A DNA stretch of 64,000 nucleotides from Vermamoeba vermiformis (lineage: Eukaryota): the NCBI GenBank assembly GCA_045837725.1, contig JBEWZL010000282.1, positions 186,001 through 250,000 of the forward strand. The letters are read 5' to 3'. A program made the translations under genes and the position numbers. Under the pieces are notes generated by a model. The model was given only the letters and a program-made list of their open reading frames with translations. It searched no databases and had not been told where the DNA came from. Shown here piece after piece: positions 7,685 through 62,800 of this stretch. Position 1 is the stretch's first letter; every line of letters begins with the position of its first letter.

Positions 7685-9495
7685 CTATTTATTTTTGAGA
7701 CTAGCGTCCCATGAACAGCGCCATTCCGTTACACCTAATAGATAGTGATCAGTGTTCCAGCCTGCAGCGTCTAATTTCTCCAAGAACGATTCGAATAGCT
7801 TGGATGTATCGTTCGCCGATTTGTACTGCTTTCTGTGCATTAATTCTGCTGTAAAATAAGCCTTCATAATGTCCTTTTGATGCGCTTCTTTATGGATGGC
7901 AAATAGTATGCTTTCCTTCGTTCGTTTAAGCAAAAATTTCTCGCCATTTGACGCGTTAATCAGATCCACCAATTCGTCATAGTTATTGTGCACTAAATTG
8001 CTGATAGAGCATCCTAATATAGTCTATATAGACCGATTAGACGGATATTTACATATTATAATTCAATAGCACGTACTTTTTTCGAATCGAAATGCAAGAT
8101 CCTCTCCCGCTTCGATATTTCCGTCGGATCAGGGATGGTACCTGAAAATCAATATGCTCAATACGATGCTTAAAAATGATTATGTTAGCTTTTAACGTAC
8201 CGTCTTTAAGGAATTGATCCAGTACGAGATCTGCTCGTTGTCGATTTAATTTTTCGAGGATGACGCCGCTAACGGCCTTATAGTTAGCAAGCAAGTGCAT
8301 TATAGTTAAAAATACATAAGCAGCCCAGATCATCGTATTGCTGCGTGTTATGATCGGAATCAAAACAGTCGCTAAAACTAATCCGAGCAATGAGTTCGCA
8401 GTTTCCTGACTGCCATCCTTTGCAGCAACATCTAAAATAAGACAATTAAATTTAAATTTAAATTGTGGAATAATCCTCCTTGACGGAAGATCTTCTCGCT
8501 AAATTTCCTTGCTTCGTGTTCCGAGCTAAAAAGTCAGTTATTTACCGGCCATATTATTTCTACGCGCTTGATGTTGCGTAAGCGCTGCTCTAGTCGCACC
8601 ACCAGCTACTCCAACAATTGCTTTCATAACTCCCGCTACAATTCAACATCCAAAGTTAGACGTGCGTTAAACATTCAAAATCCGTATTAAATGATATTAC
8701 CTATACTAGCTAAAAGAAGGAAATACTTTGGAAATATTCCAATCAAAATTTCAAAAAAGAACGCGCTGTCGTTAATCAAATCCGCCATTAATCTCCATGT
8801 CTTTGCATTGCAATCCAGATTTGACCCCTATAATTACCATAGTCACTATTAGACTCGCTGCTATTATGTCTCCTTACCTGGATCCACGTAAACATAATGC
8901 TTCCAAGTTTAGATGCACCATCTTTCAGAATCTTCTCGTGTGATTAGGTTTATATGGCAACAATATGATACTATGCGATTGTACTCACATATTGAACGGC
9001 AGCCGCTGTCGGATCTGCTTCAGCTTCGCCGACACCAGCACCAACAAGAATCGCCTGTCAAAAAGTGTCATTTTTCATTCGCTCCGAATGATACGCAATC
9101 GATAATTTGCAATGCACTATAATGGAGTACTTACCCTGGTCGCTAATGTGCCTGTTAGCGAACTACACAACGCTTGGATCGAGTCCCAGATTTGGTATGA
9201 CAAATAATCTTTGCTTACAGAGTGCGGATAACCTGGATATTATTTTTAAATATTTGCACAATTAGAATATAATTATTCAAGGCTTAACGGACCTTCAGGA
9301 AGGAACGCTTCATAAAAAAATTGTTTGAATGATCCTTTACTCGTTGATTGCTTCTCTAATGCGATCCTAATTGTTACTTAATATTAATATATATTATTTA
9401 CCATTATTGATGCTAAAATCAATTTACTCTTTTTGATCGGTGACGTAGCACTTTTTGATCGTCCCACACGTCTCTTCAAACACTATTTTCTTCAT
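7685..9495 (-). CDS. RUS1: RUS1 / DUF647 family protein (C16orf58-like)
   Basis: FLPEGYPHSVSKDYLSYQIWDSIQ, DVAAKDGSQET, HLLANYKAV...LNRQR motifs. Confidence 0.88.
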
Positions 9496-9844: not shown

Positions 9845-12011
9845 ATGCATCTGCTGATCAAGTTAGGTGCGGGACTTCTTTTAGCTATTGAAGGGTACTC
9901 CGCGAGCAACGTTCAGTGCGATAACGGAAATTGCTATAGTACATATAATACAGGTAAGCAATTATGTTGCATTTTAGTCTAGTCTAAAATAATTTTTATT
10001 CAAATCTGTCGGAGCGTAAAAATTAAAGTCTAATAAACCTGTATTATTTGTAGATAATAAGACGGCATTTAATATGGTCATTTGGATTGTTGGAGCTGTA
10101 TTCATATTAGTAACAGTTTCTCTACTATGCGCCACTAAATCCAAAAAGACTCCCAAAGCTTCTTCACGACGTGAAGCTATTCAGCCTACAATAGTTGATG
10201 AAAAGTCAAATCAATACCGCGAACTAGAGAAGGTAATATTTATTCTCTAATATTCGGTACAAATTTTACTCAATCTGCTCAAATTTCAACTTCGCCTGCT
10301 AACTTTAATGTTATTCTAGATGCTGCTTAATAATTTGGAACTTGTTAATATAGTCGGAGAACATGCCCCATTTTCACTTAACGACGGACTTTCTCGCAGT
10401 TTAGTTCTGATCTTTGAATCTAACAAATCCATTCTCGCTTTGTTGCACAGACTTATCGACACCGATATTCAAGACGCATGTAAGTCTAATATACATCATT
10501 TTAGTAATATTCGAGCCATTTTAACAACTCCGTAGCTGTACGCTTCGAACAAGAGAACACCCTACTTCGCAAGAACAGTTTTTGCAGCAAAGTCCTGTCA
10601 TATTACAATAGGACATCCTCTTTGCTATATCTCAGACGCATCTTGCACCCTGTACTATCAGATATAGTCCGAGATAACGTCTATTGCGAAATTGATACGT
10701 CAAAGTTGCCACAGGGCACTGAAGTTGAACCGAGCCAAAAATACCTCTTGGACAAATGCAATTTAATTCTGACGGCTATATTGGGATCTATTAACGATGC
10801 TCCACCGTAAGTTTTTGATTTGCCTAATTTGGCAAAGTTTCAAACGCGTGGATTAGGCTAACGTGCTATTTTTAGAAATTTACGTAACTTGAGCCATTAT
10901 TTGAAGAAACAAGTCGTTGCTCATTTGCCGAAGTATTCATCAGTGCTTAATAACTACAATAACTTTGACACGGCCACCTCAATTGATGTCATTGAAGAAG
11001 TTGAAGAAAAATCGTCGTCTTCATCTTCATCATCATCGTCTTCTAGTGATAAGAAAAGCGAACCTAAACAAGATGATACTAAGCGCGAGTCAACGGCATC
11101 GAACAGCAATAATAACATGAGTCTGCCATTGAAACAAAGCGACAACGGTGAAAAACAACAGCAAGACAAAGAGATCTCGAGTTCGGAGAGCGAGAAGAAA
11201 GAGAACATTAACATGACGTCATCAATGCCGCCGTCCATGGAAAGCAATCCTGGCACGCCTAAGAGTCCGAGCAAGAAAAAGACTACTGGACGCAAGCGAA
11301 GGAAGAGCAGCTGTTTTGGCATTGACGACGATGAAGAGGACAAAGAAGAGAACAATCAAGTCTTTTACAACGCTATTGGCTCCATGCTCTTCTTGCGCCT
11401 ATATTGTCCAGCCATTTCTGTGCCCTCTGAGAACTCGCTCGTGAACGGTAAGTCACGTGCTGAAAGTGATTTTGAGACCCTTACTGACATCATGCTAGAA
11501 CGACCTCGAGAGAATGCTAAGCGAACGTTGACGCTTGTAGCCAAGATCTTACAGAACTTGGCTAATGGCGTACGATTTGGTCGAAAAGAACCGTTCATGA
11601 CCGTGATGAACCCCTTCATTAGCGACAACTTGGCTAACATTAAGCGCTTCTTTGACGACTTTGCTGTAAGTCTTATATTCATTAATTGTTAGTAGAAGGG
11701 ACCTAATGTTATGTTCGTAGTCTACTGAGATCAATGAGCCCAAGGACTCTGCTAAAAATGTTGATCTGCCAGCGGATGTGAGAGAAAGTGCTTTGAAAGT
11801 TATTTTTGCTTCGATAGTAGCTGTCGAGGATAAGGTACGAGAACCGCTTCATTGCAATACATTAGTGCTAATGGTTTTATAGTTGCAAAAGGAGAAGTAT
11901 TATGATTCATTGTGCCGAATTCTGGATGCAATCGGTCGAGATGTGGCAAGCTCTCCGTCGATGAACGCGGCCAAGAGGAGAGTCCAAGAGTACAATCCGT
12001 ACCAGCAGTAG
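9845..12011 (+). CDS. Neurofibromin-like RasGAP with predicted signal peptide and one TM helix
   Basis: Arg-finger LLRKNS, FLRLYCPAI, LTLVAKILQNLANGVRFGRKE; exons 1-2 give a hydrophobic leader and TM MVIWIVGAVFILVTVSLLC. Confidence 0.85.
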
Positions 12012-20767: not shown

Positions 20768-21948
20768 TTTTGATTTGTTGTGTGGGTGTTCACTCTACAA
20801 AGTGCAAGTAAAGAATACTATTATTCGCATGAAACCATATATGGTTCTTTTGTTTGGTTGCTTTGTTATAAACATTTGATCTGTTGATTTGCTTGCTTCG
20901 GCTTTGTGAACAGGCGTGCTTTCCCTGAGATTTCAGCTGGAAGGTTACCCGTCCACAGACACGGCCGATAGTAATAACCTACTGTAGGACAATGGCATTG
21001 ACTCGCAGCAAGCCTTTGAGTGACGAACTAGAGGTTGACACGCGTGTCAAAAATCATGGGAAGGCAATCGCGTAAAGGTGGTAGACGAACGACTGCATCT
21101 AGCAACTATTATTATTAGTCGACTGCAGAGTATATTATATCATGGGACAGTCAGCACTTACATACTCGGCGTCCAATGTCGGATGGAGTTTCCGCTGGTC
21201 TAAAAGTGTCACGGTGCCTCAAAAACTAATTCTTCTTTACTAATACTGCAGTTTCATGCAGATATCTAGCTAACATTGAATTTGATATCCTGGTTAGTGA
21301 GTGTAGTAAACCACCACGACACGTAAGGATCTATTTTTGGAATTTTCATTGCATACTCCGCGTTATAAAGGATGGTATGATATGGCAATAACGCACTCGC
21401 AATTAAATCAATCGATATTTTCGTTGCCTTCGCGTTCACGATGCTCGAGCCATACCTCTACCCCCAAGTGCGACTAAAATGTAAAATATTCTATTGTCAA
21501 ATATTAAATGGCGCGCGGGTGTCACTAATCATATTTCCTCAGCGACCTATTTTTAAAATTATTATTAATCATTTACGTGAGGATAGAGCTGGTAGCGCAT
21601 CTGCTTACTGTTCGTTGATTATGTCGGTACCCTTGACGACCAGCGCCAAAGGGCCTAGGTTTTCCTATTAATAGACTCATGCCACTAGTAATTGATATTG
21701 CACAGAGATTATACAGCGCATTTGTGGTGTTGCCTCAGCACGTGTACATTAGCTCGAGCGAAAAAAATTTAATCAAAACCTATCTGCGTAACAGAGAACA
21801 ACACGATCAATATGATCTACTTTACCTCAATGTAGCATACGCAGTTACTTATGATTGTTGGGTCACGGGCATGTGAGCCAGAAAGGCAATCGTAACTTTG
21901 CCAGTCACTAGCCGTTTTTTTTCGATCGACCATTTCAATTACAAAACA

Positions 21949-23807
21949 ATGACTGAAAGGAGCTGCTCTTCATGCACATTAATCAACTCGCCTACTCGTG
22001 GTAAATGTAAGGTATGCGATAGTAAGCTCGAAGAGGCAAGCTGGAACTGCGATGCGTGCACCTTGATCAATTCGGAGAATGATACAGCATGTCAAGCTTG
22101 CGGAAAATCGCGTCTTAAAAAGCCTAAAATATCGAACGATATTATTATCGACGAAAAAGAAAATTTTGGTATGTTGCAAATATTTAAATTAATTTTTCCT
22201 GGATGGCGCAAAAAAAATTCGAACTTTCGGCCCCCATCTTTCGCCCCCCATCTTTCGCCATTGATTTTAATCCTCTGTACCAACAATATAGTATGCCCGT
22301 CATGCGGTTCATCGTTTAGTTCGCTTCACATCTTCTCAGAACACCTAGAATTGCACGATCAGCTGCACCAGAACAAGAGCGAAGGTTATCTGGCCCAGTA
22401 CAAGCGACGCGTGGAGAGCGCGGTTCAACGTAATGTTATATCCTCCTCGTTCGGCAAACGCAAGATAGCAGAGTTAGACGAGCACATGCGCGGAGCAGAC
22501 TCAGAAACAATGACCAAAGGTACGCGTGCTCGATCTGACCTAAACTGACTTAGTTAAGCAATCAAAGCGAATCGAATGATACGCATTCTTACTTTTATCT
22601 CGGTTGATTATGTTACGAGCTAATTTAAGCACGTCAGGAATTAACTTCGAACTTTAGGTTTGATCTCGCTTCTAAATAAGGCGCTGAAGGGTCAGGGCAA
22701 GTGGAAAGACATTATCATGTGCAGTGACACGGGTACGTTGTAGTGGAGGAATTTGTGCTCCGATAGCGCGATGACATTTGCCACGGAACAATTTGGTGGA
22801 TGCGCCTTGCCTCGTTTTGCGCAACTGATCTGACGTGTATTCTTCCTTAGATTACTTCTCCAGTGGATTTGGAGACATGGGCTGGGGATGTGGCTATCGC
22901 AATACACAAATGATCTGCAGCGCATTGATGAACAACGTTGCAGCATTTAAGTCTTGTCTGTTCGGCGGATGTGGCTTCATACCATCAATCCTCGGGCTAC
23001 AAGGTATGGGAACGATCCAAAAGCTATATATTCATATATTTTGCGTCTCGTGATATCACATTCTGATCCACATTTGTAGAATGGTTGGAAAAAGCGTGGA
23101 AAAGCGGCATTGATCCCGACGGAGCAAACCAGCTCGGCCATGAAGTCTACGATACTAAGAAATGGATTGGCACGTCTGAGATGTACGCTTTGCTGACTAG
23201 CTTTAGAGTCAAGTAAGGATGCTGTTCGAGCCGTTACGCGGTTTTTTTCTTACGTATCTGGCTTTGGCGAATTCGCAGTTCTAACGCAGTACTGCAGGGT
23301 CGAGGTCATCGATTTCTATTCGAAGCGGCTGCCGGATGACGTCATTGAGCAGGCTCGGATGAAGGCCCCGGACAAAGAGCCGAAAAAGTATCGTCCTAAC
23401 AAAGCCATGATGCAGTGGATTTGGTCTTACTTCAACGACAGAAAGGACCAGGAGTTCATTCCCCCGCTCTACTTCCAATACGATGGTAAGTTTATAACTA
23501 TTGATACTTAAAATGGCAATTCTGAATCGGGGCTCGTTGTTACGTAGGGCACTCGTTAACCATCGTAGGATGCGTTCGAGATTTTAAGAACAACGTCGAC
23601 ATTGTGCTGTTTGACCCGTCTGTATGGAGCAGGAAGCAAAAGCCTAAGATAGAGGCGGGCACTGTTCCCTCTAAACTTAAGCGCACGATCCGCGGCATTT
23701 GTCGCGATAAATACCAGATCGGTTTTATTGCTAGCGATAAGCCAGAAGCTGAAAATTATCCTGCTGCCAACAAGACTTTTAAAACGACGGCGATTTACAG
23801 TGATTAA
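21949..23807 (+). CDS. ZUP1: ZUP1/ZUFSP-family (peptidase C78) deubiquitinase with two RanBP2/NZF fingers and a C2H2 finger
   Basis: GDMGWGCGYRNTQM catalytic Cys motif, KWIGTSE, PPLYFQ..GHSLTIVG, LFDPS. Confidence 0.85.
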
Positions 23808-25314: not shown

Positions 25315-27293
25315 TAGTGTTTCTACATGTCTCATAGATGTATATAGTGCGATTTTTTTGAATAAACCTTGTATTATTAGTGCGAAATCGTGTCACACAT
25401 TGTCAAACCGAAACTGATTTAAAATTGTAACGAGCTCTGTTATCTTGTAGAGGCGATAAGGGCATTTTATAGAATGGGAATAAGAAGCAAAAATGGGACA
25501 GGATAAAATTGAGAATATACTGCAATTGCCGCAAGTGGGTGACGGATCCTACGGTAAAGATAGTCGGTCGGTAAGATCACCGCTCTATATGACCCCTTAT
25601 TGAATAGTGTCCTTTCCTTAATACCCGATAAACTCAATCAGGGTCGTCCAATAGGATAGCGAGGGGCAGAAAATTAAAAGAAAACTCGCCCCACGAATCA
25701 CACGCTAAAAACAGACTGCTGCTTCTGTCATGAATCAAGTTTCATTTTCGGTCCAAGATATTCTATTAAATCTAGACTCGCAAGATAACACAGTGAGGGT
25801 AATCATATTATTGGGTCAGTTTACTGTGGGATCTAAGAAGCTTCTGGATCTGCCGAAGATGGTGTGAGCCAGATGCGTTAAGTAACCCTAAATTTAGGAG
25901 GGCACTTTGTATAAGCTTTTTATAGGGATTAACTATTCATGAAGCAGTTTCCGGCCTCAATGTCGAATTCCGCGATCAAGTGTCAGATCCGATACGAAAA
26001 CTGTCATTTTTTATGTCACCGCAGTACCCATGGGCAAAGAATCGATCACAAATCTGGACCGAAGTGCGCTTTTCTCAAGCAAGGAACTTCCAGGTTGATG
26101 ACGTCCAGCAAATCGACATCCATTTTATTGCTAACCTTCCATTTTAATTCGTTACGGCGCCGCGCTCATTCCCTAAAAACCAGGATTACAGATTTAGCTA
26201 TTTTGAAAGTGAAGCGCATTTGAATTAAATTCTTACTTGTTTGGTAATCTGCGCACGGTTGCTTTCGCCTTAGTTATCGTTATGTTTTGCGAAAATATGG
26301 GCTTTAAGAAAGTTACGAGCAGCCGACCACGTAGAGACTAGTTGTCCGAACTCAAAGTTGCAGAGATCTTACCGAATCAATGCCTCGTACTTCTTGTTAC
26401 GATCGTTCTGTCGTGACCGAACCTCCTATTGCCATCACTATTAATTCATTTCTTTGCCCCAATCGTTAGATGCGCTCAATCTCCGCTAAAGTGGTGGGAA
26501 CGGGTCCTAAAAAGGTTACAACAAGTTAAAATTTTATCTCGTGGCAAAAAACCAATCTGCCACGTGTTGGTAACAGTTCATTCGAATAAATGTCAACGTT
26601 AGCACACGAAGAACATACAAGTGCAGCTGGTGAAAGCAATTTTCGAGTCGAATCTCTCTTGGATGCGTGCACTACACTACAAAACAACTTCGGTGACATT
26701 GGTGCGCTAAAGATAACGTAAATAATAAGTGGCCTATTATTTTTGTGACGAGGTAGCGCTCGCAAGTTAGCGGTACGTTAATTCATGATTTTTAGCTTCA
26801 CCCATCTTGATGGTAATTGAATTTGATTGTAAAAATTATTGTAATATCGGCTGCCGTGGCGAATCGTTGATTTTGGTAATTTTTGTTGAACGAAATAATG
26901 CAAGTTTTCTATTAGATTTGTTCCTGATATTTTTTGTGAATACCGCTTCGACCATGGCACAGTTAATCACATATATATTACATATCTTAGATTTTAGCTA
27001 CTTTTTTGGTGTTATAATACGCAATCAAGTTTAAAGCGTGCAAAAAAATTTGGCGCTCAGCAGATTTGCTTACCAATCGTAGAACTACATTTAATATTGA
27101 CGACCATCCTTGCATTCCATTAAATACTTAAAGTCTATTATATATGTATCGCGAGAGGGTCGTTTGACTTGTTGTGTTCCGATTTTGCATTGATGATTTT
27201 ATTAGTCTATTTATTTTTGATAAGAGGACAATAGGTCCCTCAATATAATGTCTTGTATATAGTATATGTAATATTAGATAACACTATTTAACA

Positions 27294-30200
27294 ATGATCA
27301 AGTCAAGAAGCAATTCAGCCAATGCAAATGTCATGTTAAATGTTTCAGCGATCAAGGCATCCAATGTATCAAAAATATATGTGACAAGAGGCAAAAGAGC
27401 CGGCATATTCGAAATAGTAAGTGAATAATATAGGCAATCCGCATAATTGCGTTAAATTCGCTATTATGCAAACTTATTACTCGCATTGAAATAATTTCGG
27501 TGACATCCGCAATCTTTTTTGAAATTCTTGATTTAAATTCTTATACTAGGACGCTAATTAATTAAATATATAACATGCAAATACTTTATGACCGAGTTAT
27601 AGCGTCAAGTCTCATTGTGACCGAATCTGTGGTCTTCATTTACTACACCTCATTTTGCTAACATTATTATATTATAGTTATGCGCAGTATTTATATTCAT
27701 ATTAAGCGCATTTGTAATATTGGGACCGTTAGCCGGATTCTTGATCTTCCTCGCTATTGCCTTGCTAACCCTAACCTCTGGCATTCTGACCTTAATATTT
27801 GCATTGAAAAGGAGTCACTTATTGGCCGTTCATGCGGTAAGACGAAGCAAATATAACGCATACGAGCTCAACCGATTTTATTGCAATTTCAATAGATCCG
27901 ATTCTGACGTAATCTAATTTAATTTTGTATCCAAAGTTAGCTTTATAATATAGCTCAATGTGGTAATAACAGTACAAAATTTAATTTTAAAATAGCCTAA
28001 TTGTAAGAGCGGAATGTCAAGTTTTATTTTCGGAACAATTTCTTAGTTGTTCCAAATTGATTTCGAGCTCTAATATCACTATAATCAGATATAATATGTA
28101 CTCTATAATGTCGTTTCGATAGAATGAATCAATGGACGAAATTTAACAATTTTTTTCGTTTGTTCATGGGATCTATTCTGGATCTGTCGTGGATCGCACT
28201 TTGAATGCCTCAATAACGATTACTAATTCTATTTATATCATCATAGGAGTTCGTATGGATGATAATATCGATTGGAATCTCATTAGTCATCTTGATCCTC
28301 GTTTGTGTTGGGGTTGGTTTTTCATTTGAATGTTTGATTGATTTGGGCGGGCTTTGCAATTTAATTGCGCGCGCAGTTTTAGTCGCCGTATTCACTGCAG
28401 CATATTTTGCCTTAAAAGTAAGTAATAGATGAATATACAAAATTTGTTTGGTTCGTTCAATCGAACCACCGAAAATTCAATCAAAAATTAAATTGAACGG
28501 GAAAAAAAATCACAATGATAATGCGCAGTTATTATAATACAATAATTAATGGCTTTATTTGTAGACGCTCAGTTTTTACAATGTATTTTTAATGCGAAGA
28601 GAAGTTACTCGTAACCAAAGCATTTGTAAGTACAATAGATCACTCAATAATATGCATATATCGATATAATATCTTTGAATAGTAATATCAGACATTAAAC
28701 TTCTTGACTTGTCGGTAATTTGACGAAGATATTTTCGATTAAATTGTTCTAAAATTAGACACCTGTCAAATTGACACGTGCACGTGTCATTAATTAACGC
28801 CATTAATATACCACTATTGATATTGACTTGTGTTATTAGTGTTCGAAAAGCCATTCGATACAAGACTAGTGCCTACACATAGGTCAGTGGACGAGGAGTT
28901 TTCCGTGTCTGAGGACTTGACCAGTGAAGACGAAGGCACTGTCTCAGAGCGACAAGATGAAGAGAATGTCAAGCATAGGTAAGTAGTACAATACTGTCCC
29001 GTTGCGTGAAATATCAGCAAAGACTCATTCATTGCAACTGTTCTAGTGTGGTGGATCCTGTTCAACAAAACCGAGAAATTGCGATCAAACGATTCAATGT
29101 TAAGCCTAAACGAGGCATTGAGTTCTTAATCGAGTCGAAATTGATCGATGATGCTGGTGAACGAGGAGCTCATCAAGCAGTAGACTTTATACTCGAGGCT
29201 GGCGATAAGATCAGCAGATTTAAGCTCGGCGATTACTTGGGCGAAAGGTAGGTGCCGTTAACTTCCGTTAATAACCGCTGGTCGCGGTGCTACGTGTTGC
29301 CATGTGCTAACTTTGACTCGTTTAGTGACACCTTCCCGACACTTTTCCGCAACGATTTCGCGAACAGATTGAACTTTTATCAAGTTGAAATCGATCATGC
29401 GCTAAGGTACCGACACCTCATATTCATAATTAATATGTACATGTATTCCTGACACGTTGTTAGAATGTTTTTGACCAAGTTTGTGTTGCCGCGTGAGACC
29501 GAAAAGATCGATCGTGTGATGAGCGCCTTTGCTCACAAATTCTACTTGGACAATCCCACGCTGTTCAAGAACGAAGGTACATATCATTTATATCATATAT
29601 AGACCTCTAGTATATTGTAGTAGTTAACCATAGTAGCGCGAACATGATACCTAGCAACCTCGATTTTTTCGTGTTACTAACGATTGTAATGTTATTAGAT
29701 ACGGCCTATATTCTCAGTTTCTCGTTGATTATGTTGCACACTGATGCGCATAATCCTAACGTTAAAGAGAAGTTCACTAAGGATGGCTGGATCCACAACA
29801 ACGACAGAATTGATGACGGCAAGGACTTGCCTTATGAGTACTTGAGTCAATTGTACGATAGAATAGGTATGTTACTCATACATGATAAGTTTATATTAAA
29901 ATTCAAAGTTGGTTCACTCGGCCAAACAGATCTTAGAAAATATAATCCAACCGTCTGGATCTTAAAGAATCATGTTATACTAACGTCGCTTATTAAATAG
30001 TTGCCGAGGAGATTATGTTCTCCAACGTAGATAAGCGAGGTTGGTTGCTCAAGCACGCGCGTAATGCTGGTACGTTGAGTTTGTAACTGAAATTAATATG
30101 AAGAGATGTAGTGACGTCAAAGTGAGTCTAATGGTCTATGTTAAATAGGTGGTGGTCCTGCTAAGCCCTGGAAGAGACATTGGTTCGTGCTTTCGGACAA

Positions 30201-31760
30201 TTGTCTGTACTATTACGTCGATCCAGCGGTAAGTTTATTGGCCAGATGAACAGTAAAAAGGCAAAATTTAACTTACCTTATACTAAAGGATCGAAGCTTC
30301 CGTGGCATGATCCCACTTGAAGGTGTGCAAATAGCCAAAGCTTCTCACGTCTCTAAGCCTCACTGCATTCTACTTTACGATCCGACAACAGCGAATCTGA
30401 AATCGGCCAAATTGAAGTAAGTACTTGATCAAGCTTGATGATGAATATTGAGTCCATATATAGCGGTCAAAGTCATGAATCATATGACTCAATCCACAAC
30501 AATTTTGATTTTTCGGCTAATTTTTTCGATGAATTTTTATTGACCTTTGTTATGCAGATCCAATGGTCAATTAGAGCGAGGTGTGCACGAGTTCTTCTTA
30601 TTAGCATGTTCTAGCGACAAGGAGCGCGCAGAGTGGCTTGAAGCTTTGCAGCGAAATGTTAGTCGCGATCCGTTCTACGACATTATCAAAACCAAGCTGG
30701 CTAAGATGGATAAAAAGAAGTTTGGTAAGTTAATATGAACTGTATTAATATGTCTTTCGTAAAAGTCATTCAAATTTTTGATTTTATGCCCAGATTCGTA
30801 CTGTAAATTCAATTTCGTTTCTTTCTTGTATTTGCACCGCTTAAGCTATTTTTCCGCATTAATACGACCAATATATGCTAATGTGACTATTGTTTAGGCA
30901 CTACAAGCAAGAGTACTGCTACAACTAAGCGCTCAAGAACGGCATCTGTTTCAGAAAAGCGACCAGATGGCTATGGACGCGATAGAAAGCTGACCGATGC
31001 TACCTTCACGCCACCTAGCAACAAGAATAGCAGAAGAAACTTGATTGATGAGAGCCATGGCAAACGAATCTCAGTGGATGCTGGCAGCTACCAAGATTCG
31101 AAACTCATTAACCTTGAAGTCTCTCCTCGTAAGACTAGTAAGTATTAACATCACATTTGAATATGATTATATCTACGCTATGTTATTTAGAAGTTTTGAA
31201 GTTGAATCCGCTACGTTTTATTACTTGATCTTGTTATGCCGCGTTATCTAACGAAATTTATTGTAGACTATGAAAAAGATGAATATGAAGATAGCGAAGT
31301 CATCAAGCAAGTTAAAATTAAGACTGAACGCTCCCATAAGAAAGAGAAGAGTTCGGATGGAACCCCTAAAGCGACTGCAAAAGACAGCCAGAGGGCTCTT
31401 ATGGATAGCTTTAAGAAAGAGAGCATACTTGAACGAGTAGACGATCAAAGTGGTGTATCTCCTCGAGAAGAAAAGTCGAATCCGGTCAAGAGTTCTGGAC
31501 ACAAACGAAAAATCTCAATAACCAACTCGTTAATATCGGAAGGCATCAAACTCGAAGGAGAACTGCCCATAGAGCCCGTAGAGATCAAAGAGGTGCCTGC
31601 AATCCAACCTATAGTCGCTGATAAAGAACTTGAAGTCGACGAAGATCCTGAAAAGAAAATGCCGTTGACTGATAGCGAGCATATACGCCAAGACATTATT
31701 GAGATTAAGAAGGACCTGAAGGACTTGTCGAGTAGTGGTTCCGATTCATCTTCCGAATAA
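27294..31760 (+). CDS. Sec7-PH (cytohesin-like) ARF GEF with a multi-pass membrane N-terminus
   Basis: Sec7 motifs [45 protein letters not shown] motifs [21 protein letters not shown]; upstream hydrophobic exons splice in frame. Confidence 0.8.
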
Positions 31761-32730
31761 AAAAAATATGGATGCGATCCAACAATCAAAAAGGAAAAGT
31801 ACTTCTAACCTCATGCGATATTAATTGTAAATAAAAAATAGGTTATCATACAATATACGCGTTACTTAAGTTACATAGCTCGAATATGCTTTGTAGGAGG
31901 GTGCCTAGAATGCCAGAAGATCCCCTTTCATCGACCTACAACTCGCTGCGGAATACAGACCGGATAGACTGTTCGTAAGCAAGCGTGGTAGTGCATTGTG
32001 TAACAGGTAATTTTTTGACCACTGCTTCTATGACTCGCCGAAAAATCTCCGAGCAAGATTGACTTCGATAAATTACTTATTTTAGAAAGTCAAGTTACAT
32101 TTGGAATTCAAGCTTGTGCCACTGTCCTGCTAAGAGCATTTCTCAGTAATGGGGGTCACATCATTCTCAAGAACGAATTTTTTTTCATTCGGATATGTTG
32201 GAGCCGAACCTACCTACCGGTACAAATTCTCCGTGAAGACTTCAGATCGGACATTTATTTCCAAATTTAGGAACTATTCCCAAGCTCGTGCCACGGTCTC
32301 CAGTATCCCGTAGATTGGTTAGTTTGCCTACTTATGCTAATTCCAAAAACCCCCGAGCAGATGAGCCGCATCTGCTTTCGACGATCTCGAAAATCGAGAT
32401 TATCCGAATTGTCCGTAGCCATGATAAAATAATATCCGATTTATTGACATGAATGACGGTCTTGCAGGTAGCTTCATATGAGGTAAAATCTCACTGTAAT
32501 CACAGAGCACGTGCTGAGATCTACCAGGGCACGTAGCAGCCACGCACACGCTGAAAGAATTTTCGGTGGATCTCGATATTTTTTATCAGTACTTAACGTA
32601 GGTCCTAACTAACGAGATTTGCGGAGAATCTCTTCTTCGCAGCCACCGTTTGCATTCAAATAAAATTGAAAGGAAATTTACTTATCGATAAAGAATAGGA
32701 TACAAATTGATACTTCGGATATGAGATGCA

Positions 32731-48096: not shown

Positions 48097-48395
48097 AAAA
48101 GGCAAAAAAAGAATGCACTCACCGGGAATCGAACCCGGGTCGCCCGCGTGGCAGGCGGACATCATGCCCCTAGACCATGAGTGCCTTGTTGATTTTGCTC
48201 GACGACTTTTTCACGCTACCGACCCGTTGGAGGAACTCAATCCTTGCGCCGTATTTTGTTTGACTTACTCTCAACATGCAGAAGTCATTCGCCAATTTCG
48301 CCAAGTTCAAGTCACGCAACTGAAAGATGTAGTGCGCGTAATGTGCTTGTACGCACTGGTGTACGAGACAAAAGCAGCGAGGTCCTGCCAATCTT
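48097..48395 (-). repeat. Inverted, diverged duplicate of 54190-54548 (DDX55 exon, intron start and tRNA-Gly)
   Basis: Reverse complement aligns with ...tcgctgcttttgtctc...cactacatctttcagttgcgtgactt...ttctgcatgttgagagtaagt...ctccaacgggtcgg...gcaaaatcaacaaggcactc; exon copy has a 1-nt deletion. Confidence 0.9.
48114..48184 (-). tRNA. tRNA-Gly (GCC)
   Basis: 71 nt cloverleaf: GCACTCA/TGAGTGC acceptor stem, anticodon loop CTGCCAC, GGTTCGATTCC B box, downstream T run. Confidence 0.95.
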
Positions 48396-52206: not shown

Positions 52207-55200
52207 ATGGCAACGGCAGGATCTTGGAAGGCGATTCAGCCCAAGCTGAGCGATACAGTGATGAAAATCATTCACGAAAAATTTAAATTTGAAACAATGA
52301 CTCCTGTGCAAGCTGCTACTATCCCAAAATTTTTAGAAAATAAGGATGTCGCTGTCGAGGTAATTATAATGATTATTTAGGGCGTAAAATATTATAAATA
52401 TCGATACGTACTTTCAATCAATTATTTCCAAGCTTTAAATAATATTTTTAAAATCAGATCTTGCGATCCATCCAAGATCGCAAATTAATAATTCGGATCT
52501 CGTCACGTAAATTAAACAATAAAATATCATTAATAAATCTATATTATTTAGGCTCCTACAGGCTCAGGCAAAACATTATCATTCGTCGTGCCCGTGATCG
52601 AACGACTTTTGAAACGTCAAGCAGAAGACGGACCGTTGAAAATGAACGAAGTTGGTGCTCTTATCATTACACCAACTAGGTAATATTAATATACTATACC
52701 TTCGCTATTAACCGAAATTACTAACCAATTTTTCGTCGTGATCCTGATCTGACATTTATTTTTCAGAGAACTCTGGAGCAGATCTCAGAAGTGGCTAAAA
52801 TATTTACCGACGAGACAGGCTTTGGTCTATTACTATTAATAGGAGGCACTGATGTCACTGAGGATGTGAAAGCTTATCGCGAACACGGCGCTAATATTAT
52901 TGTCGCTACACCGGGCAGATTGGACGATTTTACCAACAGAATTAACGACATTAAGTTCAAGACATTAGAAGTGCTTATATTAGACGAGGCTGATAGGTAA
53001 GACAAATGCTCTAATAGATTTATATAATCGGATCCCGATCGCTGCTTAAAATGTTTCAGAAACCTAACTAAAATATTAGGTTGCTTGATATGGGCTTCCA
53101 TATGAAGATTACTACTATCTTGCAACGTCTACCTAAGCAAAGAAGAACAGTACGTACCGACAGATCCGATCGCGAACGAAAATTGCTTTCTGAATATTCT
53201 TTTAGGGCTTATTCTCGGCTACTCAGACCAAAGAAGTATCAGAGCTTATGAAAGCAGGCCTAAGAAACCCTTATAAGATCACTATTAAAGTCGAAGAAAA
53301 AGACACCAACAAAACTCAAACCGTTCCTGCTTCGTACGTGGTCTTTAAATCCGCTCTTATTAGTTACTAATATTACAGTTAACATAGATTAACGAATTAT
53401 TATATGACTGTTGATCCTGACGAGAAGATCCCGCAATTAGTACACTTTTTGAAACAACACAAAGACAAGAAAATTATTTTATTCTGTCTCACTTGCGACT
53501 ACGTCAATTTCATATGGAAGGTAAGTACATATCGTATTTTAATACTAATATAATTATACTAACGTCTCTAATGTAGATCTTGAGAACTATTGACGAATTA
53601 CAATCAATTCCCGTTCTGTCTCTTCACGGAAAAATTCCCCATAACAAACGAACAGGTAATAGCGAGTAAAATAATACCACGGCGATAATAGACTAATTAT
53701 ATTATAGAGGTCTATAAGAAGTTTGTTGAAGTTTCAGCGTCAGTGCTCGTGTCATCTGACGTCGCTGCACGAGGACTTGACATGCCCGACATTGATTGGA
53801 TCGTGCAGTAAGCAATACGATACTATTATACATCATAATGATACTAATGGTACACTTGTCGTAATCTAGACTGGATCCGCCACAAGATCCCGCAGCATTT
53901 GTTCATCGAGTTGGTAGAACAGCACGCATGGGTCGTCAAGGCCACTCTCTCGTGTTTCTAAATAGCAACGAGATCACTTATTTAGGTACGAAATGTAGCT
54001 GTTCCAATTACACTTGATGCTAACATTAGGTGCAGAACTATTGAAGCTGCGACGCGTACCAATCAACGAAATGCCGAAACAGACTGGCGTTGAGAATGTA
54101 CTCACAAAGATCAAGAACGACATTATGAAAGACAGAGAGTACATGGAAAAGGTGCGTGCCAGTGACAGATGGAGTCCATTATTAACACGTATTGACAGAG
54201 CGTCGCTGCTTTTGTCTCATACATCAGCGCGTACAAACAACATCAAGCACACTACATCTTTCAGTTGCGTGACTTGGACTTGGCGAAATTGGCGAATGGC
54301 TTCTGCATGTTGAGAGTAAGTACAAACAACTAAATTGAGGTCCTCCAACGGGTCGGGACCGTGAAAAAGTGGTCCAGCAAAATCAACAAGGCACTCATGG
54401 TCTAGGGGCATGATGTGTGGCATGACACGCTGTCTTTCACTCCCTGTAAAATCAACAAGGCACTCATGGTCTAGGGGCATGATGTCCGCCTGCCACGCGG
54501 GCGACCCGGGTTCGATTCCCGGTGAGTGCATTCTTTTTTTGCCTTTTGACCTTCTTCTCTCCTCGTTCGCCTGTTTGCTGAGGTCTTGTTCCATCTTTCA
54601 TTTTGCCTCCTTTTATGAACACACTTTCTCTTACGTTTATGTTTGAACTTTGTACTCACAAAACAATGACAGATGCCTCGCATGTCCGAGATCAGGAGCG
54701 TACCTGAAGGTTTCGTCGAGTTGCCCCAAGAGAAGATCGACGCTGTGCCCTACAAAGACAAGAAGCGCGAGAAAGCTCGCAAAGAAAAGCTCGCTCAGGC
54801 TAAAATCGAAGAACAACAAAAGAAAGAAGAACGCGAGCGAATGAAGAAAGAGAAGTACGAACAAGATCAAATTAATAGAAAGAGAAATCAAGAGATGAAG
54901 AAACGAAAATTAGAACAATTGTACGACGATGAAGATGACGAGGAAGATATGCGCCGTGAAGCTCGTCTGCTTAAGAAACTGAAGCGCGGTGAGATTACCG
55001 AAGAAGAGTTTGAATTCGCTGTTGGTGAAAAAGATATGGAAGCGGAGTTTGATGGCGAAGGCGATGAACGCGCAGATCCAAAGAACGAAGACGGAAACGA
55101 AGAAGCGAATCCAGAAGATAACATGGAAGAAGACCCTGTCGAAGACAAAGAAGAGGTTAGCAATAACAACGACGGCTCAGGACAAGCCACAAATAAGAAA

Positions 55201-55409: not shown

Positions 55410-58400
55410 TTAGTTCTTCTTTTCGCGCACTTGGTTGACATAACGCAAAGTGCGGTTTCCGAAGAAGATCAAAGGCATAGCCAAAGCAGCAGCGTAGTAG
55501 AGAGCTTGGAACATGTTCAAAGCCAACCAGTATTGGAACAACAAGGCCAACATCAAACCAAAAGTGACTTGGAATCCAACGGCGGGCAAGAAAGCAGCAC
55601 CAGTGGGGAAGTCACGAATGTTAGCACCGACAGTCAAGAGCTGCATATACAAATAAATTAGTTCACTTGTAAGCATTAGCGAGCTTGAAAAGGAATTCGG
55701 TTTTTTTTTTTTTTCGGATCGAATCTGGTTACTTACACCAATGAGAAGGAAGGCGAGAGGAGCCAAAGTCAAACCAGTGAAGAGGGTTGACAAAGTGGCA
55801 GGAGGACGCTTCTCAGGGGTAGCAAAGACGTGTTGAATCTCGGGCAAGAGAGTGGAGGTGGAAGCAGATTTGGGCTTGGCAGATCCAACCTCGACATTGA
55901 CGTTAGCGGCGTGCAACACGATGGCATTCTCGGCGAAGGGATCACCCAAGACAAGTTCGAGCTTGTATTGACCCTTGATGAACAAGTGGGCAGTCTTGTC
56001 AAAGTTCTGTTACAAGTAAGATTTTGTTAGTCAAAGTGACCGTTACGAAGTTGCCAGATCGAGCTTAAAAAATTGAATTGAATTGTCTCAGCAACACTTC
56101 TCGACTACTTACCACGCTCCATTTGTAAGCCTTGGACTTGGCGTCGTATTTGCCAACAAAAGTAACGGCATCTGCGTTCTCTTCCTTAGGGATCAACTTC
56201 AAGTGAGCTTGCTTGACTTGGATCGAGCCAGCATCAGCGCGGAGAGCAGCAACGAAGTGCAAGTTGGTTTGACCAGCGGCGACGGAGACTGAAGGGGCAG
56301 CAGTCTTGCCAGTAGGGTCAACAGCAATGCGGCGCGTGTTGGCGGATTTGTCGTCAACTTCAGAACTGTCGCTCAAATGGGCCTCAACGGATTGCAAAGC
56401 AATCTTGGTGGCAACACGAACGACGCGCTTGGTGGAAGTAGTCGATTGGTAGTCCTTGCTAGGAGCAGTAACGCTCAAGTCCAAAGTGTAAGCACCAGCA
56501 TCCGGCTTAGATGCGAGCAAGTTATAAGCAAAAGTAGCGTCAGCGGACTCAGTCAACTTGACGTTAGTGGCAACAGCTTCCTTCTTAGCGGGAGTCGAGG
56601 CCTTGTTGATTTGAACGGCAGCCTTGGAGACGGGGTGGCCGAACAGATCAGTAACGCGGAGCTAATGAGGCAAAAAATGGTTAGAATAATATTCTATTAC
56701 GATATAATAGTGTTAATATTTAATTTTGATTTTAAAATGTAATTCATTGCTCAAGTATAATATGTTGAGCAAGATCCGTTTTGTAAGGATTTATAAGATC
56801 GGTTATAAGTAGTGTAAATGCTTTAATTATGAACTTACCTTGACTTCGCCGTTCTTCTCAGACAACGTAGAGGTACCTTCAACGACAGAGACCACGAGAG
56901 GTTGAGGTCTAACGCTAGCAACAGCATTCAAGCCGAGAACGAGAGCTTGACCTTCGCTAACAGTGCCGACGTTCTTGTGTTGCACGAGGTACTCAGCGAT
57001 GTTCGAGACGTGAGCCTAGAATCACATATTAATAAAACAACTCTAAAATCGGATCCAGTACGCGAAAAAAATTAAAATAAAATTAAGTTCATTTTTTGAG
57101 CCTTTAAGGAGCTCAATTAATATTTAAGTATTGATCAGTCATGAATAGTCCACCTTTACATCTTCGGAACGAGGAATTCATTTTCATCATTTCAATATTA
57201 TTGATTCGTATAATTATTCTCATGCTTATTGTACTTACGTCAGTGACTTCCTTGACACCCTTGTCCTTGCGAACAACGTTGGTGTATGAAGAAACACCAT
57301 CAATGAGAGTAGCAGTGGTTCTCAAGGGAGAAACAGATCCGTCCTAAAAAGAATTGAGTTAGCACTAAGATACTGTAAAATAGCATATAATCCATATGTT
57401 CTCGTAAACGCATATGCCTTTGAGTAAAATAGCCGAATAATATTATTAAATTATGCAAGCACAAAGAGAATTAAGCTGGTGATTTGTAACGGCTTGGATA
57501 ACCCTTCAATATTGCCTAATGTGGCTATAGTAATACTTACAACGTGCTTGAAGACCAAACCAGTGCCTTCGACTTGATCACCGCTCTTCATGGTAGCACC
57601 AATGCGAGATGCGACACCGTCGATCTTGGTACGTTCGCTCTCGTCAGCGTGCTTGAACAAGCTAGACAAAGTCTTCAAAGCAAGACCAGTCCAGTAGGCT
57701 GATCCTTCATCACTGTCGGCGTTCAACTTGAACAAACCTTCCTTCTCATTCAACAAGTTGAGCAAGTTACCCAATCCAGCCAAAGCCTTCTTAGAATCAA
57801 CGGTGGTGTGGCCCTAATGGCGTAAAAATATTTTAAAATTTATTATAGGCAAATAAAATACTGCGGATACGATTTGTAATAACGAACTTGTGATCGAGCA
57901 GCAGATTTCAAAAAAAGTTCATTAAGCACGCTTTAAATGCAGTACTTACGTTAGCTTGCAAAGCTTCCCAAGTAGCAACAGCGCGGTAGAAGTCAACAAC
58001 GTTATCGCCGCTCAAACCAGCGCTGATCTTCTTTGTCACGTCATCGGAGACTTTCTCGCCACATTTAAGTGCTTCCAAAACAGCAACAGCGTGATAGATT
58101 GACTCCAAATCACCGTTGAGGGCTGTGTATAATACAAATAAATAAGTATTGATTGTATGTGATGACAAGGCGAATCTGAAAAATTTTTGTTGCGAGATGA
58201 AAATAAATATCTCGATACAATACGCATCATCCACGCATTTGCAGCAAAATATTATCATAGGTGCTAGATATAGTGTTATTGTACTAATTTCCTAGCGCTA
58301 AGATACTACGCCAAAATTATTTTTGAATCTATTATTATTTTCCTTCTTCGCAACGAATAACTGCTGTTAATATTCTCCATGCGTGTAATCCATCACAGAT

Positions 58401-59895: not shown

Positions 59896-62800
59896 TTAGT
59901 AGGAAACAGTAAAAGTGCGAGAAGTGCCGTGGAACGGTGTAATGGTGCCCCAAAGGCTTCTGGAGTCACCAAAGTGTTGAATTCTGTAAGTGCCAGGGAC
60001 CACGTCCTTTAAAAAAGAAACAAATCAGTCAGAACCAGATCCCGCGAGACAGTGACTTGTAATGAACTTACAGGACCAATCTCCCAGTAGATAGTGGCAA
60101 GGGACTCAGTGATGTATCTGCGAGTCCAGCGGTACTTGGTGTCCCAGCTACCATCAGTACGGATAATCGTCCAGCTGAGAAAAATAGCGTTAGATCCGGC
60201 ACTTCAATGCGAGCCGTGTTTTACTCACGTGTTGTCAGAGTTGAGTTTCTCGACGGTCAAGAAAGTGTCTTCAGTCTTAAAGTTGTTTCTAGGACTGCCA
60301 GTGTAGAACACGACTTCAACAGTCTCGCCAATCTTGTAGCTGGGCTTGGCGTCAGTAAACACAGTGCCGAATGGTCCAGTGTCGAGTTCAACACCAGGTT
60401 GGAGCGAGAACTACATTGAAAGTCAGAAGTGAAGGGAGTTGTGGACAGGTATTCAAAAAAAAAAAAAAAAATAAAAAAATAAGAAAATGACGTGGAATTA
60501 CGTGTTATTGTACTTACAGTAGATTGGCTCAAGTCTTCAGGAGCGACGCCGAAAGGCGTGGGAGCACCAGTGGCAATGTCTTTGGCCAACTTGCTGAACT
60601 CTTGTTGATAGGCTAAACGAGATAAGTGAGCGAAGCTTCACAATAGTACGAGTATAAGTAAGTAACGTACCGGCAAGAGTCCAGGGGCCGAAAATAGTTG
60701 AGGCACCTTCGTAGCGTTGGGCGGCTGTTGAAAAGCGGGTTAGAAAGAACAATTGATTGAATGTATAGAACTTACTGTATTCTTCAGCAGTGGCAATGTA
60801 GTGCGAGTATTGGTTGCTCAAACCAGCAATCACAACAATCGTGTTGTCATCGGCAGCACCGTTTTGCTTCAATGCGTTCAAGACACTGGCCTAAACAATG
60901 AAAGGTTAGCTATGGAGTACTAATAGTAGGACACGAGGCACGTACTCTCAATCTACGGCCAGACATAGTAGTGAACTCTCCGGGCACACCAATGATGTAG
61001 AAGTTGCCCAAGCGGAACAATTGAATGGGCATGATACCAGGACTCCAACGAGAAGGCCAAGTCATACCTCCGACGTACAAAAGAATGGGCTTGGGGTGAT
61101 GGCATTTGACCTGTCAAAGTGAGGTTAGAGAGATATTGTTTTGACACGTGACAATATAGATGGTGCGTACTTGATCAGCAGGAGGGTCAGCGAGCACGTG
61201 ACTAGCGAGCCAGTTCCAGTAAGGATTGACCTTGGAGCTGTTGGTGCCTTGAACGAAGTCGAAGTCACCAGGGCCGTCAGTAGTACCGCCAGCAAACGAG
61301 TCACCGAGAGCAGCGACGCAAGTACTGACGTTAGCTTGTTGACCAGAGTACTCGGGGGTCACAGTGATGTGTTCCATGTCGAGGAAAGTGTGGCGGAAGT
61401 CAACGGGACCCTTTAAAGCAGCTGAATACAAATAAGTTAGGCAACATTGAAAATGAAACATGACGTGACGTACTCGAAGCTGATTGGTAGAGTTCATAAG
61501 CCTTCTTGAATTGGTTGGTACCAATTATTTCTAATAAAGTCAGTAAACTTTTGTCATGACTGAACATTCATTTCTTACTAGTGCTCTCGAATCTAAAGGA
61601 GAATACGTTAGAACTGTAGCAATCAAACATGACTAGAATGACTTACTCGTCGCGACCAGGTCCGTAGCCGTGGCAACCTTGAGAGGTACCACCGCAAGTA
61701 GAATGAGCGTACTAATAGGGTCGTTAGTGTGATCAAGAGGCACGTGTCTAACTTACATCGCAAGGCATGCCGTTGTCGCAAAAAGCACCGCGAGTGTTGG
61801 GCGAGACATCACCTTCGTTGCTTTGAGCCACAGCGCCGACCCAATTGCCCATACCAGGCAAAGTGCCATTGGGATTCATCTTTTCTTCCCAGAGCATTGA
61901 CGCGTAGCCCTTGTTATCACCGCTGACCTGCGACGAAAAGTCAGTCGACATGTCACAACTATGACATTTTGACACTTACAAATCCATTCGTGTTGCTCAT
62001 TGAGGTACCGTGGACGGAGAACCAAGCAATGGCACCGAGATCTAACGCATGATATTAGTAGTGTTCCAATAATAAAACTGCGGTGGTCTGTCAATCTTAC
62101 CAGTGTTGTCAGCACTGACGAACTTAAGCAAAGTGATGGCCTTGTCAGTGTTGCCAATCTTTGACCATTGTTGTCTTTCGCTCTCAGGATTCAATTCGTA
62201 AGCAGAAGGAGAACGGCTAAGAAGGGATTCGTAAGTACACAGACAAAAGTTTTGTGTGCACGTGACTTCTCGGAGTTGTACAAACGTATCTTGGAGTATT
62301 AACGAAAGGAGTACATACTTGATGTTAGTGAGGGCAGTCATGACGTCAGTGTTGACGATGACACGACCGACTTGAAGTCTCTCGTGAGCGCGTTGAATGG
62401 CGTTAACAATGCCATTAACGATGACTTCAAAGTTCTCATTGTGGAAGCCCCAAGTTGTGACGTCGTAAAGAGGGTACCTGTCATATAATATTAATGAGTT
62501 TCATAATATATAAGGCGATAGAACGTCGTTTGAATGCCGATAGATCAAGAAGCTAAAAAAAGTAAAGATGGAAATATTTTTAGATTTAATGTGTAGCGTC
62601 ATTAATCAAATAATTTTGGGAACTATAATCGTACCAGTTGTATCCACCAGGTCCATCGTGAGTGTGAGTGGCGCTAATCATGACATTCTCGATCGTGTAG
62701 GTGTTGCCGTAGATATGCTCTATTGGGATTGATTAGAATTTAAATATTATGCTAAGTGATACGCGTACTCAATCGCTCTACTACGGTAAGCTTGACTGAA

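Follow-up and report, generated by a model that had tools for sequence, protein, structure and literature searches.

The gene at positions 27294-31760 on the plus strand of the window, by which we mean the whole analysed stretch of 64,000 nucleotides (nt) of Vermamoeba vermiformis DNA, probably encodes a 797-amino-acid (aa) integral-membrane member of the cytohesin branch of the Sec7 guanine nucleotide exchange factors (GEFs) for ARF GTPases. Predicted transmembrane (TM) helices would here precede a Sec7 and a PH domain in one gene of 15 exons, and we put the probability of this reading at about 0.8. ARF-GEFs are treated as soluble enzymes, with recruitment to the membrane as the regulated step; a cytohesin that is indeed permanently embedded in a membrane would have a set position, and regulation could act on its activity alone. 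Papers of 2010 and 2013 mention cytohesins with a TM region in Dictyostelium, and these have never been studied. The present locus adds transcript-level proof of the fusion, two more diverged relatives and clear purifying selection on the TM part, and offers a compact family for testing what a membrane-fixed cytohesin does.

Gene structure

The 15 exons hold 2,394 coding bases in a single open frame, which is kept across all 14 junctions for 797 codons. All 14 introns are of the GT-AG type and measure 57-410 nt, and 8 of the 14 have the donor GTAAGT. The five upstream exons are those of an earlier sequence-only reading, which had joined them into the first Sec7 exon; their coordinates, GT donors and AG acceptors hold, and the phases (0, 0, 0, 0 and 1, then 2 into the exon at 29047) are correct. 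The exons downstream were added from the reading frames and from joints in RNA and contigs. Three RNA-seq runs (X21, X22 and X23, all with the same species label) and the contigs of a further data set, X1, were mapped on positions 26800-32000. The ATG at 27294 is preceded, at a distance of five codons, by an in-frame TAA (27279). The G+C content is about 34-47% over the window, which is eukaryotic DNA, and no paralogue was found within its 64,000 nt. The features of the gene are the following.

27230-27293, plus strand: minimum 5' untranslated region; a piece of an X1 contig spans 27230-27413, and depth is zero in the bins 26800-27147 in all four data sets (4/4)
27294-27416, plus strand: exon 1; holds the start codon and encodes residues 1-41, a basic N-terminal segment that presumably lies in the cytosol
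27678-27836, plus strand: exon 2; from hydropathy, predicted TM1 (38-56), a GPLAG turn, predicted TM2 (62-84) and a basic K-R-S-H loop
28247-28417, plus strand: exon 3; the predicted TM3, which starts at residue 96, a conserved loop with two Cys, and a marginal TM4 at about 133-150
28565-28625, plus strand: exon 4; the end of the predicted TM4 and the motif Y-N-V-F-L-M-R-R-E, which includes Met161
28840-28978, plus strand: exon 5; acidic Ser/Glu-rich linker with no in-frame Met
29047-29247, 29326-29406, 29464-29576 and 29699-29866, plus strand: exons 6-9; Sec7 domain, from Pfam, the cytohesin-3 alignment and joints
30001-30069, 30149-30228, 30289-30416 and 30558-30724, plus strand: exons 10-13; PH domain followed by the basic C-terminal helix (S-R-D-P-F-Y-D ... 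K-K-K), from Pfam, the cytohesin-3 alignment and joints
30898-31137 and 31267-31760, plus strand: exons 14-15; a tail of about 245 residues, rich in Ser, Lys and Glu, closed by a TAA stop
31830-31835, plus strand: AATAAA, a likely polyadenylation signal 70 nt past the stop; depth is zero from 31846

One transcript

The TM exons and the Sec7-PH exons are one gene and are carried on one messenger RNA. When the 57-aa peptide of exon 3 was searched among longer proteins, its only match was the 799-aa product P0001, which is 95% identical to that exon and agrees with the window model in 716 of 796 aligned residues (90%). From its M-I-K-S-R-S start, P0001 runs in one frame through the hydrophobic helices, the linker, Sec7, PH and an acidic, Ser-rich end. 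The longest contig carrying it measures 2,538 nt, and it must be a spliced copy, because a 2.4-kb frame on a 2.5-kb contig excludes the 2.1 kb of introns. The sequence-only reading had proposed RNA-seq across the junctions 28417/28565 and 28625/28840 as a check, and with the reads of a relative both are crossed in the three runs as well as by an X1 contig. The junctions around the TM exons are covered as follows.

27836 to 28247: X1 contig only, no reads in X21, X22 or X23
28417 to 28565: four reads (two starts) in X21, one in X22, one in X23, and one X1 contig
28625 to 28840: four reads (two starts) in X21, one in X22, two in X23, and one X1 contig
28978 to 29047: X1 contig only, no reads in X21, X22 or X23

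Further downstream most joints are present in X1 contigs and several also in reads, and the joint 31137/31267 is spanned by an X1 contig of 722 nt. Exon 1 is joined to exon 2 on the strength of the continuous products P0001 and P0002, the latter a more distant relative described below.

A different explanation is that there are two genes, a small four-TM protein that ends at a stop near 28420 or 28667 and then a separate soluble GEF, in which case read-through or chimeric assembly would account for the joined forms. Stops are found where this requires them, since reading through the donor of exon 3 gives a stop 4 codons on, near 28420, and reading through that of exon 4 gives a TAA at 28667-28669, 14 codons on; the GEF exons are also covered more deeply than the TM exons. 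The sequence-only reading had itself named the second of these stops, near 28670, as the possible end of a TM gene. The stop does exist, but spliced reads join the TM and GEF exons, with both critical junctions crossed in all three RNA runs, and the frame is open over all 14 junctions. A separate GEF would moreover have few places to start: the in-frame Met codons of the model are residues 1, 14, 99, 161, 313 and later, which bears out the earlier remark that the linker exon and the first Sec7 exon lack one, and no in-frame ATG occurs in the intron sequence immediately upstream of exons 4, 5 or 6. The same fusion is found in P0002 (45-48% identity) and in L001, a third relative, and in an exhaustive profile search the TM domain had no homologue standing alone, the short matches being fragments of exons only. 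We consider two separate genes extremely improbable.

As a side observation, positions 27496-27669, inside intron 1, show a depth of 0.42 in X22 and X23. The reads are few, and this depth may come from unspliced RNA or from reads overhanging from the exon.

Conservation of the predicted membrane part

P0002 is a product of 703 aa on a contig of 2,481 nt, 45-48% identical overall and with the same TM-Sec7-PH layout. By region, the identity to the window model is as follows.

TM part: P0001 93.0%, P0002 48.4%
Linker: P0001 76.8%, P0002 32.5%
Sec7: P0001 94.7%, P0002 55.9%
PH: P0001 96.8%, P0002 61.6%
Tail: P0001 85.5%, P0002 22.8%

The TM part is thus far better conserved than the linker and the tail, and against P0002 the tail is the least conserved region of all (22.8%). 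Exons 1-13 are also found on L001, a genomic contig from a metagenome, in the same order and on the same strand and with GT-AG sites. Against it, the ratio of nonsynonymous to synonymous substitutions (dN/dS) is 0.164 for exon 1, 0.048 for exon 2, 0.065 for exon 3 and 0.049 for exon 4, which may be compared with 0.005 for the first Sec7 exon; over exons 2-4 together it is 0.057 (130 codons, dS 0.88). The TM exons are under strong purifying selection.

Three pieces are invariant. TM1 is preceded by R-G-K-R-x-G-x-F-E-I, TM3 and TM4 are separated by F-x-C-L-x-D-L-G-x-L-C-x-L, and TM4 is followed by Y-N-V-F-L-M-R-R-E, which is unchanged in P0001, P0002 and L001. Two short fragments, P0108 (exon 1) and P0107 (exon 3), are exons read through their donors, in which the match ends at the same exon ends, and further genomic copies therefore have these exon ends as well. 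Taken together, the fusion transcripts, the diverged relatives and the purifying selection argue that the anchor is functional. The integral-membrane ARF-GEF proposed from the sequence alone accordingly remains the best reading, carried by the single mRNA, the conserved layout and the selection, with the membrane insertion itself predicted.

The exchange factor part

To judge from alignment, the GEF part is cytohesin-like from Sec7 and PH as far as the basic C-terminal helix, and GEF activity is predicted. On P0001 the Pfam Sec7 profile (PF01369) reaches 193.4 bits, where the cut-off is 22, and is matched over positions 6-183 of 183, and the PH profile (PF00169) scores 60.5 bits; the match is to this profile and not to PH_9 or IQ_SEC7_PH. 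The best match among solved structures is cytohesin-3, in one continuous alignment of P0001 residues 222-557 (E 2.4e-72) that takes in Sec7, PH, the S-R-D-P-F-Y-D helix and the basic stretch. The catalytic Glu is kept, with "lpre" standing over "lpge" of cytohesin-3 in the HMMER alignment, and its codon is the GAG at 29495-29497, residue 323 of the window model. This agrees with the sequence-only reading, which had noted a retained Glu finger, and both that motif and the Cys-containing loop motif which it named are present in the translation. Sec7 motif 2 is conserved too and aligns over "lsfaiimlntslhnh" of cytohesin-3. Most residues of the PH pocket are retained by comparison with Grp1, including K-x-W-K-R, Y-Y and R-G-x-I-P-L; the exception in the window is the position of Arg284, taken up below. 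The PH exon at 30149-30228 (W-K-R-H-W-F) has, in the loop preceding this motif, three consecutive Gly.

The predicted membrane domain

Residues 1-165 consist of a basic segment and hydrophobic helices, and have no N-terminal coiled coil as in animal cytohesins; the linker that follows (residues 166-222) has a net charge of -9. On hydropathy and insertion-energy scales, the segments 38-56, 62-84 and 96-115 have negative estimated insertion energies (about -2.9, -4.3 and -4.3), and past residue 200 there is no stretch of 19 residues with an insertion energy below zero. The sequence-only reading had counted about four hydrophobic helices in exons 2-3, of which three stand as clear segments, while the fourth is marginal and has its end in exon 4.

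A four-TM topology with both the N- and the C-terminus inside is predicted. Basic stretches precede TM1, separate TM2 from TM3 and follow TM4, which fits a cytosolic position of both ends: residues 1-37 contain 7 K+R and no D+E, with the conserved R-G-K-R-x-G-x-F-E-I among them, the N-terminal segment and the three loops have 7/0/2/0 K+R, and RR follows TM4. It would also be the sole arrangement that lets Sec7-PH meet cytosolic Arf-GDP. The predicted outside-facing loops are then short, about 5 and about 11-17 residues.

The domain resembles no known family in the searches made. A profile built from two N-termini and run against 1,835,955,588 representatives gave three proteins at E <= 0.001, namely P0002 and two exon fragments. 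The best Pfam matches to the N-terminus alone were DUF7847 (E 0.96) and DUF2070 (E 6.4), and the best match of the N-terminal profile among PDB sequences had E 2.9. Among 106 Sec7 proteins found with P0001, N-terminal hydrophobic stretches of several spans occur in P0001 and P0002 only. Viral contigs gave 68 pattern matches with no relative among them, and a comparison of TM1-2 with TM3-4 gave no signal of internal duplication, the observed score being reached in 316 of 500 shuffles.

Two families with a similar outline were considered, since tetraspanins and MS4A/CD20 proteins share the four helices in about 130 residues and the N-in/C-in orientation predicted here. The tetraspanin profile of Pfam scores 16.7 bits (E 0.006) against a cut-off of 32.1, the match is gone when the N-terminus is scanned alone, and the TM3-TM4 loop of about 11-17 residues is far shorter than the large second loop, with its Cys-Cys-Gly motif, of tetraspanins. 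For MS4A/CD20, an Atlas cluster reached 0.86, below the lead threshold of 0.9, and there was no CD20 match. The best cluster in the Atlas feature search with the N-terminus was a nematode "transmembrane protein" cluster at 0.87, followed by a giant-virus cluster at 0.86, all below the lead level of 0.9; with residues 1-560 the search gave cytohesin clusters at 0.82.

Weight of the evidence

A number of points count against the integral-membrane reading, and they concern the transcripts, the fourth helix, the structure models and the PH pocket. The mapped reads number just 40, 39 and 80 in the three RNA runs, and X21 and X22 are one sample. No mapped read is 99% or more alike, so that the reads belong to a close relative and not to this strain. 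X1 is guessed to be RNA; among 20 public data sets that share sequence words with the gene, all guessed to be RNA, none has half or more of the words. The joint of exons 1 and 2 (27416/27678) is absent from the listed joints. Finally, the depth in X1 is about 3-8 over the TM exons and 13-42 over the 3' part, which could reflect a 3' bias or additional shorter transcripts.

Such shorter transcripts would fit a gene with two isoforms, in which a soluble Sec7-PH protein is made from an internal start at Met161 (M-R-R-E-V, exon 4) besides the TM-anchored form. Between the TM helices and Sec7 the frame contains no Met other than Met161, this Met is conserved in P0001, P0002 and L001, and the X1 depth climbs from about 7 in exons 3-5 to about 18 in the first Sec7 exon. 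The depth, however, goes on rising towards the 3' end within the GEF part, from 18 to 42, just as a plain 3' bias predicts, and the mapped RNA data have no site at which many molecules start. The conservation of Met161 is explained without any function as a start, because the motif around it makes up the cytosolic end of TM4 and is conserved as such. A second, soluble isoform is in our view rather unlikely.

On the side of the protein, the fourth segment (133-150) is marginal, with an insertion energy of +0.6 and a mean Kyte-Doolittle value of 2.13. The AlphaFold models, made from alignments of two rows each for the N-terminus alone and for the full length, are poor: the N-terminus has a mean predicted local distance difference test score (pLDDT) of 63.5 and a predicted template modelling score (pTM) of 0.32, and the full length a mean pLDDT of 37.1. 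It could be argued from these results that the anchor does not pass the membrane four times, and instead forms paired hairpins or two long helices in the cytosolic leaflet, a monotopic and reticulon-like wedge that perhaps senses curvature. TM1 and TM2 are one hydrophobic run of 46 residues with a turn of just 5 residues, TM4 is the weak segment, and the model of the N-terminus has two long helices, 28-86 and 92-172. This model is nevertheless the one of low confidence given above, and the full-length model, poorer still, shows four helices there, with breaks at 53/59, 84/89 and 121/127. The TM3-TM4 loop contains Glu, Asp and two invariant Cys, as suits a loop that is exposed across the membrane from the cytosol, and the charge pattern is consistent with four passes. 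We find a wedge quite unlikely and keep to four predicted passes.

The last point concerns the PH domain. Arg284 of Grp1 is a key residue in the binding of phosphoinositides. At the position that we take to be equivalent, the window, P0001 and L001 have His, and P0002 has Arg. Phosphoinositide binding of the PH domain may, judging from these residues, differ from that of Grp1.

Relation to known cytohesins

Animal cytohesins are soluble and are recruited to membranes. The sequence-only reading took cytohesin-type GEFs in general to be soluble, which holds for the animal proteins but is incomplete, since DDB_G0279241 of Dictyostelium has predicted TM segments (PMC2826412, PMC3737031). According to its published description, that protein of D. 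discoideum (919 aa) has "four predicted transmembrane domains" ahead of Sec7 and PH, in the position of the coiled coil (PMC3737031; PMC2826412), which is reported to be missing in all three Dictyostelium cytohesins (PMC3737031). Shina et al. (2010) reported TM-region proteins of the cytohesin family in three dictyostelids (PMC2826412), and PPL_10293 of P. pallidum (686 aa) and DFA_11559 of D. fasciculatum (678 aa) are given as counterparts of DDB_G0279241 (PMC2826412, PMC3737031). Both papers report the TM-bearing protein without studying it (PMC2826412; PMC3737031, Müller et al.). In a pan-eukaryotic survey of Sec7 GEFs from 2019 the word "transmembrane" is absent from the main text, and the supplementary table enters DDB_G0279241 as "Sec7, PH" with cytohesin-4 as the best human match, at 5e-76 (PMC6727740).

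Compared by published description, the dictyostelid proteins and the present one have several predicted TM helices directly before Sec7-PH, in the same order and at a similar size, and the 5e-76 of DDB_G0279241 to cytohesin-4 is comparable to the 2.4e-72 to cytohesin-3 here. They differ in that the labels MFS and DUF2339, which the papers give to the TM region, find no counterpart in the Pfam scan of the present N-terminus at E <= 10, and the N-terminal profile retrieved its own small family only at E <= 0.001. As the TM-Sec7-PH layout is already in print for Dictyostelium, the locus is best filed as a further member by layout, on a comparison of descriptions. A literature search for other TM-bearing Sec7 proteins, with subscription journals outside its scope, found only the two Dictyostelium papers. 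For Sec7 proteins with membrane segments in ciliates, the literature searched gave no support.

The animal cytohesins (cytohesin-3/Grp1 and ARNO; PDB 2R09 and 6BBP) have in common with the present protein the Sec7 domain with its Glu finger, the PH domain, and the S-R-D-P-F-Y-D helix with the basic stretch. In contrast to them, it has about 165 residues of hydrophobic helices and an acidic linker in place of the N-terminal coiled coil, and an extra C-terminal tail of about 245 residues. Relative to cytohesin-3 the linker between Sec7 and PH has 12 residues fewer, and the first PH loop has 5 more.

The N-terminal module has been swapped in other cytohesin derivatives as well, those of the ARCC/SecG type (ankyrin-Sec7-PH) in amoebozoans, alveolates and a haptophyte (PMC6727740). 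The cytohesin core with an exchanged N-terminal module is common to them and to the present protein, which differs in having no ankyrin repeats and in that its added module is, by prediction, membrane-spanning. Proteins with ankyrin repeats, Sec7 and PH are among the best matches outside the family (P0003 with 40% identity and P0005 with 38%).

Two of these relatives are unusual in their own right. P0005 (889 aa; Sec7, ankyrin and PH; 38% identical to the GEF part) has one hydrophobic stretch of 19 residues near its C-terminus, at residues 834-852, and this may be a tail anchor and another way to fix a cytohesin-like GEF in a membrane. In P0003 (1225 aa, on a contig of 4,038 nt) a class-3 lipase domain (PF01764) is present in addition to Sec7, ankyrin repeats and PH, which is another unusual layout derived from the cytohesins.

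Possible mode of action

If the integral-membrane reading is right, the N-terminus would form four membrane helices, at residues 38-56, 62-84, about 96-121 and about 133-156, with both ends of the protein facing the cytosol. The TM domain would then stand where animal cytohesins have their N-terminal coiled coil and would keep the enzyme permanently on one membrane, where it could load GTP onto a GTPase of the Arf1/Arf6 type. The PH domain and the basic helix would probably still gate the activity via lipids or Arf-family GTPases, as in cytohesins.

The two-Cys, Asp-containing loop between TM3 and TM4 is the best-conserved piece of the TM domain. One could imagine that the domain is a sensor, in which this outer loop detects an extracellular or lumenal cue (an ion, the redox state or a partner) and the signal passes via TM4 and Y-N-V-F-L-M-R-R-E to release an autoinhibition of the cytohesin type. 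The protein would then be a receptor and a GEF for Arf in one polypeptide, and would represent an unclassified subfamily of TM-cytohesins beyond Dictyostelia. We regard this as very unlikely. The word "receptor-like" in the sequence-only reading also finds no favour in the data, as the predicted outside-facing loops are short and the TM domain matches no receptor family.

Neighbouring genes

Other exons in the window encode domains that are common in eukaryotes:

8049-8498, minus strand: RUS/UVB_sens
10862-11692, plus strand: RasGAP
21877-22548, plus strand: RanBP2-type zinc finger
55410-56661, minus strand: ribophorin II
62042-62500, minus strand: neutral ceramidase

A search with the ceramidase exon was headed by two JGI products, at 64% and 48%, with plants following at 33-37%, and the lineage therefore looks poorly sampled. 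An Rfam scan of the window gave nothing besides two tRNA-Gly(GCC) genes, at 48114-48184 on the minus strand and at 54460-54530 on the plus strand, which lie about 6.3 kb apart and score 58 bits each.

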